From: a virus
Lineage: Duplodnaviria > Heunggongvirae > Uroviricota > Caudoviricetes
Strand: one strand, 5' to 3'
Virus record (IMG/VR): IMGVR_UViG_2541047739_000007
Length of the DNA: 32,653 nt
The notes beneath the pieces were generated by a model, which saw only the letters and a list, made by a program, of their open reading frames with translations, was not told the DNA's origin and made no database searches. This document shows, piece by piece, positions 1 through 6,653 of the stretch. The translations under genes and the position numbers were made by a program. Within the stretch, counting starts at the first letter, position 1. The number at the start of each line of letters is the position of its first letter.

Positions 1-1164
1 TTACGCCTTCTTTATATCCTCCATAATTCCACAGTGGGACATATTTGGGACATTATCACCAAAAATGTCGTCTATTTTCCTTGCATGCTCTGTCAAATGA
101 TTAGGCGCAAGGTGAGCATACCTACGAACCATTTCTATGGACTCCCATCCGCCCATTTCCTGAAGCACAGATAATGGGACGCCTGACTGGATCAGCCAGC
201 TTGCCCAGGTGTGTCTGAGGTCATGGAAACGGAAATCTTCAATTCCTGCACGACGACAAGCTGATAGCCATGATGTCTTGCTGTCGATGCGCATCTTCCT
301 GACCGCAGGCGTTGATGTTCCATCTGCTCGCTTAGTCGCCTTGGTATGTACAAACACCCATTTGTGATGCTTGCCTATTTGATCACGCAACACTTTACAG
401 GCGGTATCGTTCAGCGCCACACCAATGGCGCGGTTTGATTTGCTCTCTTCTGGATTCACCCAGGCAACTCGTCGCTGCATGTCGATTTGTTGCCATTCCA
501 GATTTATGATGTTCGACTTTCTCAGACCAGTTGCCAGCGCAAACTTGACGACAGATTTCAGTGGTTCGGGGCACTCATCAATAAGGCGTTTTGCTTCCTC
601 CTTTTCCAGCCATCTGACTCGCTTGTTTCTGACCGCTGGTATCTTGATGACAGGCGCTTTTTCCAGCCACTTCCAGTCGCGTTCTGCAGCACGGAGAATG
701 GCCTTTATCATGGCAAGATGCTTTGCCTTTGTCTGAGTTGATACTGGCTTTGGTTCATAAACAGGCGGTTCTTTACCTTTCCTGATGGCGGCCTGAACTT
801 TCTGTTTCCATATTTCTTTCGTCTTTCTGTTATGCATTCTGCTTACAGCAGAGTAAATCTTTGCCTCCGAGATATCTTTAAGCCTTATACCCTCAAAATG
901 TTCAAGCCAGAACTCAATCCGGCTTTTATCTGAATCGAGAGATTTTTTATCAGCTTTTTCCTCAAGCCATCTTAGGCAGGCCTCTTCAAAAGTGACATCA
1001 GGTAAATCCCCTAGCTTTTCTACTCGCCAGAGTTCTGCTTTTCGCTTGTCGTGCAACTCCTGAGCTTGCCGCTTGTCCTTTGTGCCAAGAGATTCCTTAA
1101 TTCGTTTCCCGCCCGGGAGCGAATACGAGGCATACCATATTTCATTTCTGCGGAAGAGTGACAT
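1..1164 (-). CDS. int: Tyrosine site-specific integrase, P22/lambdoid type
   Basis: 387-aa ORF; N-terminus [34 protein letters not shown] resembles P22-family integrases; C-terminal HDLRHT...RYAHL tyrosine-recombinase signature; window begins at its stop codon, so att lies left of the window. Confidence 0.9.
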
Positions 1165-2585: not shown

Positions 2586-2903
2586 TTTGTTCTCCACGTA
2601 TATGCACTGCACCGCGCTGAATTCTGGTAAAAGGAAGCCCTCACCATCCGGTGATTATTGAGTTAATTACGTTTCCATAAATGCCCCCGCAGGGGCATTT
2701 GCAGTAATGAAATCAGGCGGTGAAAGTACCAATAAAGGTTTCTACTTTGCTGTCTTTGAATTTCTCAACAAGCAGATCACGAAATTCGTTAGCCATTTCT
2801 TCCTGCACCGCTTCCAGCTGAATAATGCGCAGAACCAGTACAGGACGATCGCCAGTGATAATGCTGAGGCGTAATTTAAACGGACGTTCTTTCAGACCTT
2901 CAA

Positions 2904-2912
2904 ACGGAACGC
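2904..2912. repeat. IS1 target-site duplication, left copy (ACGGAACGC)
   Basis: Identical 9-mer directly abuts both IS1 termini. Confidence 0.9.
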
Positions 2913-2967
2913 GGTGATGCTGCCAACTTACTGATTTAGTGTATGATGGTGTTTTTGAGGTGCTCCA

Positions 2968-3243
2968 GTGGCTTCTGTTTCTATCAGCTGTCCCTCCTGT
3001 TCAGCTACTGACGGGGTGGTGCGTAACGGCAAAAGCACCGCCGGACATCAGCGCTATCTCTGCTCTCACTGCCGTAAAACATGGCAACTGCAGTTCACTT
3101 ACACCGCTTCTCAACCCGGTACGCACCAGAAAATCATTGATATGGCCATGAATGGCGTTGGATGCCGGGCAACAGCCCGCATTATGGGCGTTGGCCTCAA
3201 CACGATTTTACGTCACTTAAAAAACTCAGGCCGCAGTCGGTAA
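2968..3243 (+). CDS. insA: IS1 InsA (transposition inhibitor / N-terminal part of transposase)
   Basis: 91-aa [46 protein letters not shown]... recognised as IS1 InsA. Confidence 0.95.
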
Positions 3244-3665
3244 CCTCGCGCATACAGCCGGGCAGTGACGTCATCGTCTGCGCGGAAATGGACGAACAGT
3301 GGGGCTATGTCGGGGCTAAATCGCGCCAGCGCTGGCTGTTTTACGCGTATGACAGGCTCCGGAAGACGGTTGTTGCGCACGTATTCGGTGAACGCACTAT
3401 GGCGACGCTGGGGCGTCTTATGAGCCTGCTGTCACCCTTTGACGTGGTGATATGGATGACGGATGGCTGGCCGCTGTATGAATCCCGCCTGAAGGGAAAG
3501 CTGCACGTAATCAGCAAGCGATATACGCAGCGAATTGAGCGGCATAACCTGAATCTGAGGCAGCACCTGGCACGGCTGGGACGGAAGTCGCTGTCGTTCT
3601 CAAAATCGGTGGAGCTGCATGACAAAGTCATCGGGCATTATCTGAACATAAAACACTATCAATAA
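3162..3665 (+). CDS. insB: IS1 InsB reading frame (expressed as InsAB' transposase via -1 frameshift at A6C, 3219-3225)
   Basis: 167-aa frame ...[28 protein letters not shown]... recognised as IS1 InsB; TTAAAAAAC slippery run present. Confidence 0.95.
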
Positions 3666-3680
3666 GTTGGAGTCATTACC

Positions 3681-3689
3681 ACGGAACGC
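3681..3689. repeat. IS1 target-site duplication, right copy (ACGGAACGC)
   Basis: Identical to 2904..2912. Confidence 0.9.
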
Positions 3690-4379
3690 ATTTAAATTCA
3701 AATGCCACTGGCATAATGTCTTTGGTCTTCGCTTCGACAGACTCCATCAGGGAGCGTTTGCCGCTGAAGTCATTATCTTCAAAATCAGCGGTCTGGTTTG
3801 CTTCAATCGTGATTTTACGGACTGCCGCAGCCGCTTTTGTTGCCTGAATAGCGTCACCATTAGCATCAAAGCCCACAAGGTAGTCGGCCCAGTCTTCGAT
3901 CCATTCTGCCAGTGACTTCTGGGAGTTACGCTCGCCGTTAACAGACAACAGAGCAGAGAACGGTGCTGTCTTTTTCAGTTTGAGAGTGGCAGTGTTATCT
4001 GCGTGACCTGGCTCATCAATAGTACCCAGGTTAAGCACACTGACGGCACGCATATTATCGGCATCGATAAAGCAGCGGGTGCCTTCATCTGCAAGATCTT
4101 TAGAATAACGGGTAAAATCATCGATGCTGGCAGTGGAAAGTGCACCACGGAAACGGAAGCGATTTAAATTAAATTTTTCCAGATCATGAATGCGGAAATT
4201 CTCAGGCAATGCCACAGCATCGGCACCAATCTTACTGATAATTTCATTAACACCCTGAGCAGAAATAAGGGCATGGATTTGATTAATTGCGGTTGCGTCT
4301 AAGTTCTGAGACATAATAAGTCCTCACTATATAAAGATATTCAGTGATGAGATAAATAATCAGTTTATTACGAACGATA

Positions 4380-4742
4380 TTAACGACCTGCTGCGCGGAG
4401 TTTTCCGTCAGGTTCACCGGCAAGAGTCAGTAATTGTCCCTGGTCTTCCTGCAGAATAGTCAGGCGACCACCGCGATTGACATACATCGGCGTTTCGGTG
4501 GTGTCTTCTTCGGAAATTTTCCCGCGGTTAGTTGGGCGAACATATGAGAGTTTGTGTTTGATTTTCACACGGTTCTCATCAAACGGTTCGATTTCCAGAT
4601 TGAGTGAGACCTTCCCTTTGGTTTTCGTGTTCATCACACCGGAAGCGACCTCACTGAGAACTGCGCCGATTTTGGTTTCAAATACGCCGCCGTCCAGCTC
4701 CCCGATAAATGCCTGCACATCAGTACTGCGTTCGCTAGCCAT
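4380..4742 (-). CDS. Hypothetical phage early protein, 120 aa (resembles CPS-53 YfdP from memory)
   Basis: Start MASERSTDVQAFIGELDGGVF preceded by GAGGAG SD with 7-nt spacer; the longer track ORF starting at 4907 is probably an upstream over-extension. Confidence 0.6.
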   Translation of the reverse strand: MASERSTDVQAFIGELDGGVFETKIGAVLSEVASGVMNTKTKGKVSLNLEIEPFDENRVKIKHKLSYVRPTNRGKISEEDTTETPMYVNRGGRLTILQEDQGQLLTLAGEPDGKLRAAGR

Positions 4743-4791
4743 TTTGCTGCTCCTCATCATATCGACCCTGCAAGGTCGGTTGGTTTCTCCA

Positions 4792-4878
4792 CAAAACAGA
4801 GAAGAACACCTGCGGTGGCAGCCGCCCGGATGGATTGGGTTATGAGCCCGTCGTCCGGTGATGCTCTTCTCTGTTTTG
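4792..4878. repeat. 14-bp perfect inverted repeat (CAAAACAGAGAAGA / TCTTCTCTGTTTTG) flanking a 59-nt GC-rich spacer
   Basis: Arms at 4792-4805 and 4865-4878; the spacer has further local stems (GCGG...CCGC); sits about 50 nt upstream of the 4742 start codon. Confidence 0.6.
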
Positions 4879-4888
4879 CAAAAAAGGA

Positions 4889-4925
4889 CGGTACCAGCCG
4901 GAAGCAAGGGTACAAACTGGTACCG
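4889..4925. promoter_or_regulatory. 9-bp perfect inverted repeat CGGTACCAG / CTGGTACCG with 19-nt loop containing GGTACAAA; candidate leftward operator (oL-like) or RNA hairpin
   Basis: Arms 4889-4897 and 4917-4925; shares the GGTACA core with the palindrome between cI and cro. Confidence 0.4.
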
Positions 4926-5144
4926 CCAGGACTACACACAGCATAAAGTTGTGGTGCCGGGTGCCTCCCGGTGCCTGGCGAAGGTTGCACACCAGGCGGG
5001 TGGGTATCCACAGAAGGTCGACTGTCAGCCTCAACCTTAACCCGCGTGCGCTGAGCCGCATTCACCACAACGCTAAGGATTCTCTCTGGTTGAAAATACT
5101 TAGCTGTTATGTGCCTGCTTTTAGCCACATCAGGCGAGGTGGAC

Positions 5145-5198
5145 CTGGTTATTCCCCAACAACAAGGATTCGGTTAATCTGGATATCCCCAACAACAA
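5145..5198. repeat. Direct repeat pair CTGG(T/A)TAT(T)CCCCAACAACAA
   Basis: TCCCCAACAACAA at 5153-5165 and 5186-5198, 33 bp apart, immediately upstream of the 5215/5238 start. Confidence 0.6.
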
Positions 5199-5214
5199 TA
5201 AGAGTATTCAATGT

Positions 5215-5728
5215 GATCGCTGAATTAACGGCAGCAATGACGGCTATTCGTGAAACAGCCCAGATTGCAAAACTAATGAACGAGGCAAAAACTCAAGCTG
5301 AAGTAAATGCGGCTATTGGTGAGCTGAACTCAAAGCTTGCGTCTATTCAGCGCGAATGCGTGTCTCTCGTTGAACTGGTGGGCTCTTATCAAGAAATAAA
5401 TGCTTCTCTCAAAGCTAAAATTGCAGAATTCGAAAACTTTGAGGCTCAGACGGAAGGCTATATCCTTAACCAACTTGAGTCGGGTACTTTTGTATACTCG
5501 AAGGAGGTAATCGTGAACGGTGGCAGCATAACCATGCATCTTTGCCCAAAATGTTTTGGACAAAAGATAGTATCGATACTTCAACCATTCCCGGTTAGCA
5601 AAGATGAGCTTTTTCATAAAAGCAGGTGCCTCCACTGTGAAAATAAGTTTCTGATGAATAAAAATCCGGATTACGTATCGCCTCCATCCATTGAGGAGTT
5701 GTCCAGAAAACTTAACGGCAATCTGTAG
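5215..5728 (+). CDS. Orphan hypothetical protein: predicted coiled-coil N-terminus and C-terminal CxxC...CxxC zinc-ribbon
   Basis: AT-rich ORF between the leftward early operon and cI, on the opposite strand to both; start uncertain (GTG 5215 or ATG 5238, MTAIRETAQIAKLMNEAK...); CPKCFGQ...17 aa...CLHCENK; own terminator downstream. Confidence 0.5.
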
Positions 5729-5767
5729 ATTGCTACTGTTGTGGATATCCAGATTGTTAAAGAGCTA

Positions 5768-5791
5768 AGCGTCCTGTAGGGCGCTTTTTTG
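5768..5791 (+). terminator. Intrinsic terminator after the orphan gene
   Basis: AGCGTCC-TGTA-GGGCGCT stem-loop followed by TTTTTT. Confidence 0.6.
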
Positions 5792-5904
5792 TTGCTAATG
5801 AATCATCCTAGACTTCATATGCTCCAGGCGGCTACTTCGTGGGCGTCCTGCCTGTTTGTTGTTTCTCTTGGGTACATTATGTATCCCAAAGGCACATTGT
5901 CAAG

Positions 5905-5942: not shown

Positions 5943-6617
5943 TTAGGCTTTGATTTTGTATCTTCTTGGTTTTCCTGAGAAAATCACAGTTCCAATTATA
6001 GAGCAATTACCGTTGATCTTAATGTAAGGCTCAGGCCAGTTTGGGTTTAACGCTTTGAGATAACGCTGTGTCCCATCTTCTATCAACCTTTTGAAGGTGG
6101 TTTCACCTGTATCGTGCATCAATGCAATAACGTCGTCACCGTGGCAGGCAGGTACTTCAGGATCGACAAAAATCATGTCTCCCGGGCGGTACTCATCAAT
6201 CATTGAATCACCTATCACCCGCAAGATATAAGTCATTTCCCCACAGGGTACAGGGCAGGGATACGTTTCTGCTGTGCTCAAATCAACCTCAGAATATCCA
6301 ACTTCTTTCCATGCTCCGGCCTGTACCCATGATATGACAGGGACTAATGTGATTTGTTTATTAGTGATTGAAACATCAGGTTTTTTTGTGATGTTCGTTG
6401 TCTGGTGTTCTTGATCGAGCCATCCGACAGGCAGGTCGAAACATTTTTCGATGTGTCGTGCCATGCTGTCACCGATATTTTTAGTAGCACCATCTCCCAT
6501 AAACCTGCTGGTCTGGGTTGGCTCGCGATCAATCATAGTGGCAAAGGAAGAATTCCCGCCAACACCATCTCTCAGTTTTCTGGCGTTAGACCGCCGGATG
6601 TCATGGATTGTTTTCAT
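5943..6617 (-). CDS. cI: CI-like prophage repressor with C-terminal S24 (LexA-like) self-cleaving peptidase domain
   Basis: 224 aa; C-terminal GDSM serine motif and downstream TFKRL lysine (Ser-Lys dyad); divergent from a cro-like gene. Confidence 0.85.
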   Translation of the reverse strand: MKTIHDIRRSNARKLRDGVGGNSSFATMIDREPTQTSRFMGDGATKNIGDSMARHIEKCFDLPVGWLDQEHQTTNITKKPDVSITNKQITLVPVISWVQAGAWKEVGYSEVDLSTAETYPCPVPCGEMTYILRVIGDSMIDEYRPGDMIFVDPEVPACHGDDVIALMHDTGETTFKRLIEDGTQRYLKALNPNWPEPYIKINGNCSIIGTVIFSGKPRRYKIKA

Positions 6618-6632
6618 AACGAAATTAAAACC

Positions 6633-6653
6633 CTTGTACCGTTAAGGTACAAG
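6633..6653. promoter_or_regulatory. Candidate operator: inverted repeat CTTGTACC-GTTAA-GGTACAAG
   Basis: 8-bp perfect arms with 5-bp spacer in the 90-bp cI/cro divergent region. Confidence 0.55.

Follow-up and report, generated by a model that had tools for sequence, protein, structure and literature searches.

A structured RNA related to STnc100 and PasD, probably a small RNA with a downstream leader, upstream of yfdP in a lambdoid prophage of Escherichia coli

A non-coding block at positions 4743-5214 was analyzed in a 32,653-nucleotide stretch of viral DNA (IMG/VR record IMGVR_UViG_2541047739_000007; this whole stretch is called the window), which covers the left part of a lambdoid prophage of Escherichia coli (SfV/ST64B/CPS-53 type). 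The block fills the exact interval between two divergent genes, yfdP on the minus strand (ATG 4742-4740) and an orphan gene on the plus strand (GTG 5213), as described in an initial annotation made from the sequence alone. It holds a real, conserved, structured prophage RNA with a terminator and a leader, and this RNA is mostly already known in kind. The block is probably the gene and downstream leader of a structured small RNA (sRNA) of about 193 nt, transcribed from the minus strand from about 5072 to 4880. The element is a divergent branch of the STnc100/PasD family, although it lies outside that family by Rfam's own rule. The locus ties together three separate literatures: Rfam STnc100, the PasD sRNAs of enteropathogenic E. 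coli (EPEC), and sRNA-17 of meningitis E. coli.

Structure and conservation of the RNA

Read along the minus strand, the block contains a 45-nt conserved segment (5142-5098), hairpin P0 (5104-5074), a junction (5071-4948), a 20-nt linker, a stem followed by six uridines (U6; 4927-4880), a second hairpin (hairpin 2, 4878-4792), a small hairpin, a Shine-Dalgarno (SD) sequence, and the yfdP ATG. The entire 361-nt minus-strand leader was predicted to fold at -159 kcal/mol (z = -7.1 vs shuffles). The structured core is a 125-nt five-helix junction (4948-5071, minus strand), which was recovered from an Rfam hit, RNAalifold on ten relatives, the minimum free energy (MFE) fold, and a covariance model built from the same ten relatives (R1). 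It is closed by the 9-bp helix P1 (5071-5063 with 4956-4948) and continues through J1/2 (AAU, 5062-5060), P2 (GCGGC-UCAGC-GC[A]CGC, 5059-5044), the base of P3 (5043-5040 with 5001-4998, with a variable top), P4 (4997-4973), and P5 (CCGGG-AGGCA-CCCGG, 4971-4957), which abuts P1. The GC-richness ascribed to the block applies to the core region 4792-5075 (58% vs 52% for the whole window) but not to the full interval 4743-5214, which is only 53%, or to 5100-5214, which is 44-49%.

Relatives were collected by BLAST and pattern scans from SfV, SfII, SfIV, ST64B, 118970_sal3, Cronobacter phage phiES15, the phage-P1-like RCS47, SJ46, and JL22, and approximately 120 IMG/VR contigs. Two blocks are invariant among them, GGUGAAUGCGGCU(C/A)AGCGCACGCGGG and ACCGGGAGGCACCCGGCACC, and the helices between vary in sequence and length. 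Using RNAalifold on ten diverse copies, P1 to P5 were recovered with compensatory changes in 7/29 pairs. In an alignment of 74 distinct sequences, compensatory (double) changes were present in 23 of the 29 pairs and 95.4% of cells were paired, vs 40-47% with slid partners; the observed values were reached in 0/500 shuffles, and the pairing is somewhat inflated given that this alignment was fitted to model R1. The P2 stem is wholly swapped between subfamilies (CCCCC/GGGGG vs GCGGC/GCCGC) while its UNNGC loop and bulged A are unchanged. The initial annotation had offered a structured leader or small RNA as one of its interpretations, and the inverted repeats it listed are indeed RNA helices of a minus-strand transcript, the one strand on which the repeats make sense. 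This transcript comprises the core, a terminator of the intrinsic type, and a hairpin in the leader of yfdP.

This pattern of change also bears on whether the block is a decayed protein-coding gene. In an identical locus, the RefSeq pipeline (PGAP) calls a 'frameshifted hypothetical protein' pseudogene at about 4757-5068 on the minus strand, a 123-amino-acid open reading frame (ORF) spans 5128-4757, and residues 82-117 of this ORF match phrog_33599 (unknown function, 62-position profile). A coding origin is nonetheless highly improbable. The ORF matches no Pfam family and is lost in ST64B, phiES15, and RCS47, where there are stops in every frame. Alignment to ST64B requires indels of 1, 1, 2, 22, 2, 1, and 16 nt, which are not multiples of three, and substitutions number 17/29/25 at codon positions 1/2/3 of the 123-amino-acid frame, with no third-position excess; the changes are instead compensatory across RNA helices. 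The PHROG match is limited to the highly conserved hairpin 2, and its simplest cause is repeated automatic ORF calls on conserved non-coding DNA. Because of the missing Pfam match, the restriction of the PHROG match to hairpin 2, the indel pattern, and the codon-position counts, the block is considered neither a gene nor a gene remnant, in agreement with the initial annotation that no convincing ORF is present. An unconserved remnant of a decayed coding gene, which that annotation had named as the outcome that would undo its proposal, is not what was found: the block is conserved, with compensatory base-pair changes that are not codon-like.

Upstream of P1, hairpin P0 (5074-5104, minus strand; GCUAAG 5104-5099 with CUUAGC 5079-5074) appears in the MFE fold directly 5' of the core. 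Its pairing is kept with other sequence in ST64B (UAAGAG/CUCUUA), phiES15, and RCS47, and P0 is absent from the mEp460 allele discussed below. The 45-nt segment upstream (CCACCUCGCCUGAUGUGGCUAAAAGCAGGCACAUAACAGCUAAG, 5098-5142, minus strand) is common to SfV and Cronobacter phiES15, and sequence farther upstream differs. This segment either serves the RNA as an atypical promoter or belongs to a longer precursor. RNAalifold also pairs CACAUA (5113-5108) with UGUGUG of the linker; the changes here are one-sided only, and the pairing is broken in one relative.

The linker (UUUAUGCUGUGUGUAGUCCUG, 4928-4947, minus strand) is 20 nt long, U/G-rich, and unpaired in the fold, and it is a candidate Hfq/seed region. 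Its motif UGCUGUGUG(U/A)AGUC is kept in ST64B, sal3, and phiES15 despite differing terminators and is replaced by AGCCACUGCUUUGG in the sRNA-17 allele. The U-rich linker together with the U6 tail fits an Hfq-type sRNA. Complementarities of 5 bases between the linker and the yfdP initiation region, noted by eye for both the window and ST64B, were considered too short to support a claim.

Terminator, hairpin 2, and yfdP leader

Each of the perfect repeats reported for the block was located in the sequence at the positions given, and their significance was assessed against 300 dinucleotide-preserving shuffles of 4743-5214. The 9-bp inverted repeat (4889-4897 / 4917-4925), whose 19-nt loop includes GGTACAAA, is not unusual by itself (41/300 shuffles). 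On the minus strand it is followed by CCUUUUUU, and the repeat is kept in relatives. It is part of the stem of an intrinsic terminator (4880-4927, minus strand), in which the 9-bp repeat is grown to 12-13 pairs (stem-loop 4927-4888) and followed by CC and then U6 (4885-4880). With a predicted free energy of -17.8 kcal/mol, a G+C-rich stem-loop, and an immediate U-tract, it has the features of a Rho-independent terminator; a simple terminator scanner missed 4927-4880 given that its loop limit was 8 nt. The Rfam STnc100 alignment places the family terminator helix on the same 9-bp repeat, and 59 nt over the terminator (4870-4928) are 91-93% identical to mEp460-type phages (BLAST, window query positions 218-276).

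The 14-bp perfect inverted repeat (4792-4805 / 4865-4878, 59-nt spacer) is well beyond chance, since a perfect inverted repeat of at least 14 occurred in 0/300 shuffles (maximum 12). It lengthens to 24-nt arms with 83% complementarity (4792-4815 / 4855-4878) and forms the base of hairpin 2 (4792-4878, minus strand), an 87-nt structure with a branched 39-nt top and a predicted free energy of -48 kcal/mol. Hairpin 2 sits between the sRNA terminator and yfdP, and its foot carries an A-tract (CAAAAC) in the 5' arm and GUUUUG in the 3' arm. The mEp460 copy is nearly the same; those of ST64B and sal3 are conserved, with a single compensatory change (G-C to A-U) and several changes on one side only. 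The conservation of hairpin 2 between E. coli and Salmonella phages exceeds that of the terminator. The position before the ribosome binding site (RBS), the A-tract/U-tract foot, and the long near-perfect stem suggest that hairpin 2 may act as a second, weaker terminator or as an RNase III processing site as in the lambda N leader. A further small hairpin in the yfdP 5' untranslated region (CGACCUUGCAGGGUCG, 4766-4781, minus strand) was found in the MFE fold 10 nt upstream of the SD sequence, and its sequence differs in ST64B.

Relation to STnc100 and PasD

A permissive Rfam scan returned one meaningful match, STnc100 (RF02076), on the minus strand at 5101-4878, over the full model (1-206; 40.3 bits, E 4.3e-7). 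At the gathering threshold, the whole window gave no Rfam match. The element is assigned to a divergent STnc100 branch on the basis of a reciprocal search with models, invariant motifs held in common, its architecture, and its terminator. For the reciprocal search, canonical STnc100 cores were gathered with GGTGAATCCCCCTGTGCGG and scored with R1; they reached 38-69 bits and aligned end to end, and the window scored 116.6 bits. Two canonical copies (L128 and L133) scored 131 and 82 bits with the Rfam model. The window contains an exact match to the STnc100 family motif CACCGGGAGGCACCCGGCACCA. As in the family, P1 is followed by GGUGAAU (5071-5060), the invariant hairpin CCGGGAGGCACCCGG abuts the P1 3' arm (4971-4948), and the RNA ends in a 3' intrinsic terminator (stem 4927-4888, U6 4885-4880). 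The GGUGAAU and CCGGGAGGCACCCGG motifs are at least 97% conserved over the 74 distinct family sequences.

In common with STnc100, PasD1, and PasD2, the element has GGUGAAU after the closing helix, a P2 hairpin with a UNNGC loop and an A bulge, and CCGGGAGGCACCCGG stacked against that closing helix. The middle helices are likewise variable, a linker and an intrinsic terminator are present, and the location is a lambdoid prophage. It differs from them in the sequence of the P2 stem and of the linker (seed). Genomic position differs as well: the element heads the early-left operon by the immunity region, whereas canonical STnc100 lies between a Q-type gene (or stx) and the lysis genes (PMC12370729), and canonical copies, unlike the element, often form tandem arrays with obvious promoters. 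For PasD and STnc100, the same kind of conclusion was reached in a 2026 preprint, which calls the function unknown (10.64898/2026.05.13.724894). PasD1/2 give Northern bands, show Hfq-dependent stability, and have partners by RIL-seq (PMC8550237). STnc100 copies are transcribed and abundant in uninduced EDL933, and STnc100_4 was confirmed by Northern blot (PMC5331693). Identity with PasB was rejected because PasB lies inside a phage structural operon. An exact subfamily motif scan of genome contigs found only five Escherichia/Shigella representatives and added little on taxonomic range.

sRNA-17 as an allele of the locus

In E. coli K1 RS218, sRNA-17 is encoded in a mEp460-like prophage and was determined to be 193 nt by 5'/3' rapid amplification of cDNA ends (RACE) and Northern blot, with no Rfam homologue reported (Sun et al. 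2020, PMC7719688). Its sequence was taken from the supplementary primers of that paper and from mEp460; the published 5' end is CGUUGUGGUGAAUGCG... and the 3' primer/RACE end is ...GGUACCGCUCUUUU (PMC7719688, Table S2). The same terminator, hairpin 2, and yfdP start are present in mEp460, and the sRNA-17 deletion primers fall in this terminator. The start of the 'full length' primer (CGTTGTGGTGAATGCG) is identical to window positions 5072-5057 on the minus strand, and the 3' end lies at the GGUACCG(C/U)(U/C)CUUUU terminator. By analogy, the 5' end of the mature RNA is predicted at 5072 (minus strand), and transfer of both published ends would give an RNA from 5072 to 4880, or 193 nt.

The interior is where the two differ. 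The sequence targeted by the Northern probe is not present in the element, as mEp460 has other interior sequence; window positions 4929-5056 have no BLAST similarity to mEp460, and only the terminator matches. Model R1 scored only 27 bits on mEp460, mostly from P1. The two RNAs share the first 16 nt (CGUUGUGGUGAAUGCG), the 3' arm of the closing helix (CACCACAAC), the terminator, the position upstream of the hairpin-2/yfdP leader on the yfdP strand, a length of 193 nt (predicted here), and an overall architecture of a closing helix plus two hairpins, of which one follows GAAU and the other stacks on P1. They differ in an interior of approximately 105 nt and a linker that are unrelated in sequence and in the upstream promoter/ArcA fragment: sequence upstream of the element is unlike the published ArcA fragment of sRNA-17 except for a short TAAC..GCTAAGT stretch. 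Because both RNAs fold to the same overall shape, the element and sRNA-17 behave as alleles in which the interior has been swapped within a conserved P1 clamp. The window allele connects the sRNA-17 locus, reported without an Rfam homologue, to STnc100. In mEp460 (L249 2060-2613), the annotated ORFs gp36 and gp37 lie opposite the sRNA-17 gene and terminator and may be mis-annotations.

Deletion of sRNA-17 raised yfdP approximately 95-fold and also raised yfdR, and these were the largest changes (PMC7719688). Both genes lie immediately downstream of sRNA-17. By comparison with the arrangement in the window, the increase may be a cis effect, arising either because a barrier to transcription is lost or because the inserted cassette is read through, two causes that the study does not separate; the strongest deletion effect would then maybe act in cis at the head of the early-left operon and not in trans.

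Alternative roles of the core

Several points weigh against reading the block as the gene of an STnc100-type sRNA. The STnc100 match of 40.3 bits is below the gathering score of 47, which is the threshold for membership, and none of the other subfamily copies tested (SfV, ST64B, phiES15, and P1-like) reached the gathering score. No sigma-70-like promoter was found upstream of 5072 by consensus scan, so that the 5' end is possibly processed from a longer transcript or is primary with an atypical promoter. A search for targets complementary to the linker, restricted to the window with host targets not searched, returned just the element itself. Some relatives have no terminator and carry the core directly before an SD-ATG or 2 nt before tRNA-Ser, and the core is thus not always in a free-standing terminated sRNA. 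The rise of yfdP and yfdR in the sRNA-17 mutant possibly comes from the inserted resistance cassette and not from loss of the RNA or terminator.

The core could instead be mainly a cis-acting leader element (an attenuator, a riboswitch-like sensor, or an RNA polymerase- or factor-binding RNA as in HK022 put) that controls read-through of 4927-4880 and later terminators. The core lies between a PL-like promoter (5903-5876) and yfdP, right before the terminator and the second hairpin. About 50 nt are invariant across lambdoid and P1-like contexts while the peripheral helices vary, which is typical of ligand-, protein-, or polymerase-binding RNA. P1-like contigs fuse the core, without a terminator, directly to the SD-ATG of TerB-like or small membrane ORFs. 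Neither SfV orf33 nor its phiES15 equivalent is N-like, so that some other antitermination device is needed, and deletion of the sister allele sRNA-17 de-represses yfdP and yfdR. Against this, RNAs of the family build up in uninduced cells as discrete, terminated species, which means that their own terminators are efficient (PMC5331693, PMC8550237, PMC7719688). In many canonical copies, which occur singly or in tandem arrays, P1 is preceded at a distance of a few nt by a good promoter, a relative within a tRNA cluster, 2 nt before tRNA-Ser, speaks against translational or attenuator control, and no alternative antiterminator pairing was seen in the MFE or centroid folds. A mainly cis-acting core is judged unlikely.

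The HK022 put element is a two-stem RNA of approximately 70 nt in a promoter-proximal position (PMC9378689). The element resembles put in being a structured RNA in a lambdoid early-operon leader, upstream of terminators, with neither N-position candidate being N-like. Homology was rejected: R1 had no match in putL/putR or elsewhere at the HK022 locus, no motif is common to put and the core, and approximately 800 nt separate the element from the PL-like promoter, in contrast to the promoter-proximal putL (PMC9378689). Because of the lack of similarity to put, this distance, and the efficient family terminators in vivo, a put-like role is disfavoured.

The terminator-less cores were found in P1-like and other IMG/VR contigs (L015, L029, L006, L040, and L117), 20-35 nt upstream of an SD-ATG. 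The genes that follow encode TerB-like proteins (141-144 amino acids) or small two-helix membrane proteins followed by an SPFH-like lipoprotein. In the P1-like RCS47 (L006), the element is flanked by upl and the gene that comes after it. In L086 (4263-4809, minus strand), the core (4480-4352) is in a phage tRNA cluster with Asn, Tyr, and Thr tRNA genes upstream and ends 2 nt before tRNA-Ser(UGA), as if co-processed. Canonical STnc100 copies occur in tandem arrays of 3-5 copies approximately 250 nt apart (L167 4377-5458 and 8376-8518; L131 2323-3354; L142 1723-2344). The L167 array lies between a DUF968 gene with a Q-position ORF and the holin/lysozyme/Rz genes, and in L131 the genes on either side of the array encode a DNA methylase and a sialate esterase. 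Upstream of many canonical copies, a strong promoter ends a few nt before P1. Weak second R1 matches (22-25 bits) occur in L006 (2309-2448), L029 (11955-12094), L040 (6678-6811), and L117 (9818-9952), in each case a few hundred nt upstream of the main copy, and may be decayed copies; the one in RCS47 overlaps the plp gene on the opposite strand.

The terminator-less, tRNA, and tandem contexts together with the approximately 50 invariant nt leave room for a further, tentative reading, which is possible but doubtful. The five-helix junction (GGUGAAU, P2, and CCGGGAGGCACCCGG on P1) could be an autonomous RNA domain that binds RNA polymerase, a host or phage protein, or a small ligand, and not just an Hfq-sRNA scaffold. 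It would then be a portable phage module, with the closing helix as the cassette boundary for interior exchange, as in the sRNA-17 allele. If so, the module would be deployed in early and late operon leaders, before TerB-like, kil, or membrane-protein genes, and in tRNA clusters. The strong core conservation in very diverse contexts makes the element a good candidate for learning the role of a widespread prophage RNA family.

Promoters and proposed mechanism

The initial annotation had suggested that the block could hold the leftward early promoter and operators. The consensus scan found no promoter in the block and placed a PL-like promoter (TTGACA-16-CATAAT) at 5903-5876 on the minus strand instead, directly after the cI terminator (5931-5912). 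This promoter is common to SfV and overlaps the palindrome GGGTACATTATGTATCCC. The leader that follows it (…ACAGGCAGGACGCCCACGAAGUAGCCGCC…) is kept both in SfV and in ST64B, which has a different operator region. The first approximately 60 nt transcribed (about 5825-5860; …ACAGGCAGGACGCCCACGAAGUAGCCGCCUGG…) are hairpin-capable and conserved in SfV and ST64B and, judging from the sequence, are a candidate early-leader signal. Between the PL leader and the RNA module, the cargo is orf33 in SfV, the antisense orphan-gene cassette in the window, and other sequence in ST64B. No promoter was found by consensus upstream of the RCS47 (P1-like) copy.

In SfV, ST64B, 118970_sal3, and phiES15, the module occupies a position after the repressor gene and before the first early-left genes, and in every lambdoid relative the first of these is yfdP or, in phiES15, kil-gam. 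Because the module heads the early-left genes, leftward transcription must cross the terminator to reach xis and int. For the favored sRNA gene with its downstream leader, a combined mechanism is proposed. In a lysogen, the module would yield a discrete, terminated, probably Hfq-associated trans-acting sRNA with the linker as its seed. In cis, the terminator, possibly aided by hairpin 2, would be a barrier that keeps yfdP, yfdQ, yfdR ... xis, and int silent, and the barrier would be lifted once leftward transcription from PL becomes termination-resistant.

A possible model for such combined cis and trans action is IsrK of Salmonella Gifsy-1, by analogy only; it has no sequence or structural relation to the element. 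IsrK, according to a published summary, is likewise a self-terminated small RNA at the head of a prophage operon, and its terminated and read-through transcripts share their 5' part (PMC7380047).

The early-left leader of lambda contains nutL, an RNase III-sensitive hairpin in the N leader, and tL terminators that are overridden for int/xis expression. The element has the equivalent map position, a long near-perfect hairpin just before the RBS of the first gene, and terminators to override. Unlike in lambda, no boxA/boxB was recognised, and RNase III cleavage of hairpin 2 is conjecture. The possibility of a nut/N system was rejected: what looks like boxA (CUCUUA) forms the 3' arm of the covarying hairpin P0, and the small ORFs between repressor and element in SfV (orf33) and phiES15 (its equivalent) do not encode arginine-rich proteins.

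Repeats next to the orphan gene

The 13-bp direct repeat TCCCCAACAACAA reported by the initial annotation is present at 5153-5165 and 5186-5198 (5153-5198 in total; minus-strand reading TTGTTGTTGGGGA), and a direct repeat of at least 13 occurred in 0/300 shuffles (maximum 10). The two copies are at mosaic junctions: homology ends near 5142 with phages of the SfV type and near 5196 with those of the SfIV/Kati type. A segment over one copy (5154-5171) resembles the P0/P1 5' arm segment 5065-5082 (78% over 18 nt). We infer that the direct repeats are mosaic-junction sequences or relics of module 5' ends and are not operator-like.

The second copy overlaps the left arm (5176-5194) of a 19-nt, 95% inverted repeat whose partner (5737-5755) lies just past the orphan-gene stop, so that the arms (AATCTGGATATCCCCAACA / TGTTGTGGATATCCAGATT) bracket the orphan gene. 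This overlap is the sole real tie of the block to the orphan gene. The suggestion that the block is the regulatory element of that gene is not supported, as the structures of the block are on the opposite strand and are conserved in SfV, ST64B, and phiES15 without that gene. The orphan gene's own terminator (5767-5786) falls outside of the 19-nt inverted repeat.

A role as DNA-level signals was also considered for the repeats at 5142-5214 and perhaps for the block as a whole: these could be operators or binding sites for CI or other regulators, a promoter serving the orphan gene or the RNA, or sites at which a mobile or invertible orphan-gene cassette recombines. The exact 13-bp repeat is beyond chance, its 33-bp spacing is approximately three helical turns, one copy lies within the inverted repeat around the orphan gene, and homology to different phage groups breaks off at the repeats. 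ArcA binding to an upstream fragment has been reported for sRNA-17 (PMC7719688), but the upstream sequence in the window is unlike that promoter fragment, and ArcA control is therefore not transferable. The repeat is also unlike the palindromes of the cI-cro interval (CTTGTACCgttaaGGTACAAG, 6633-6653) or the PL-like promoter, and no promoter consensus is present. An invertible cassette was rejected given that a chimeric inverted-junction query was covered to at least 80% in 0/1122 matching E. coli genomes. Signals of this kind would cover 5142-5214 at most and leave the conserved, covarying helices of 4792-5104 unexplained, and they are quite improbable as the explanation of the block.

Prophage setting and distribution

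The 551 bp around the block are 100% identical in many E. coli chromosomes. This variant, overlooked by the Rfam threshold, was present in about 1160 of 5426 complete E. coli genomes when at least 80% coverage of the 551-bp query was required. Data from K-12 are not applicable to the element, as CPS-53 does not carry it and has only the yfdP RBS in common. In the early-right regions of SfV (L002 8030-8218) and ST64B (L004 409-597), adjacent isrK and C4 antisense RNA matches scored above the Rfam gathering scores; at the gathering threshold, neither was matched in the window.

From the ORF list and the RefSeq annotation of the identical locus, yfdP extends from 4742 to 4380 on the minus strand. 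Its start (4740-4755, minus strand; SD GAGGAG 4755-4750, ATG 4742-4740) forms the downstream edge of the non-coding block, and the RBS is identical in K-12 CPS-53. The 120-amino-acid product matches phrog_204. On the other side, the orphan gene (5213-5728, plus strand, GTG start at 5213) matches phrog_1244, of unknown function. It is followed by a cI-type repressor gene (5943-6617, minus strand), to the right of which are cro-, cII-, and replication-type genes.

At the left end of the window is the integrase gene (1-1164, minus strand). An IS1 copy at approximately 2900-3680 (InsA 2968-3243, InsB 3162-3665; ORFs 2968-3665) interrupts the early-left operon in the yfdR-yfdQ region. The yfdR region is disrupted, and yfdQ (3676-4314, minus strand) is cut to 212 amino acids, compared with an 825-bp gene in other annotated copies. 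With IS1 in its early-left operon, this copy of the prophage is probably defective.

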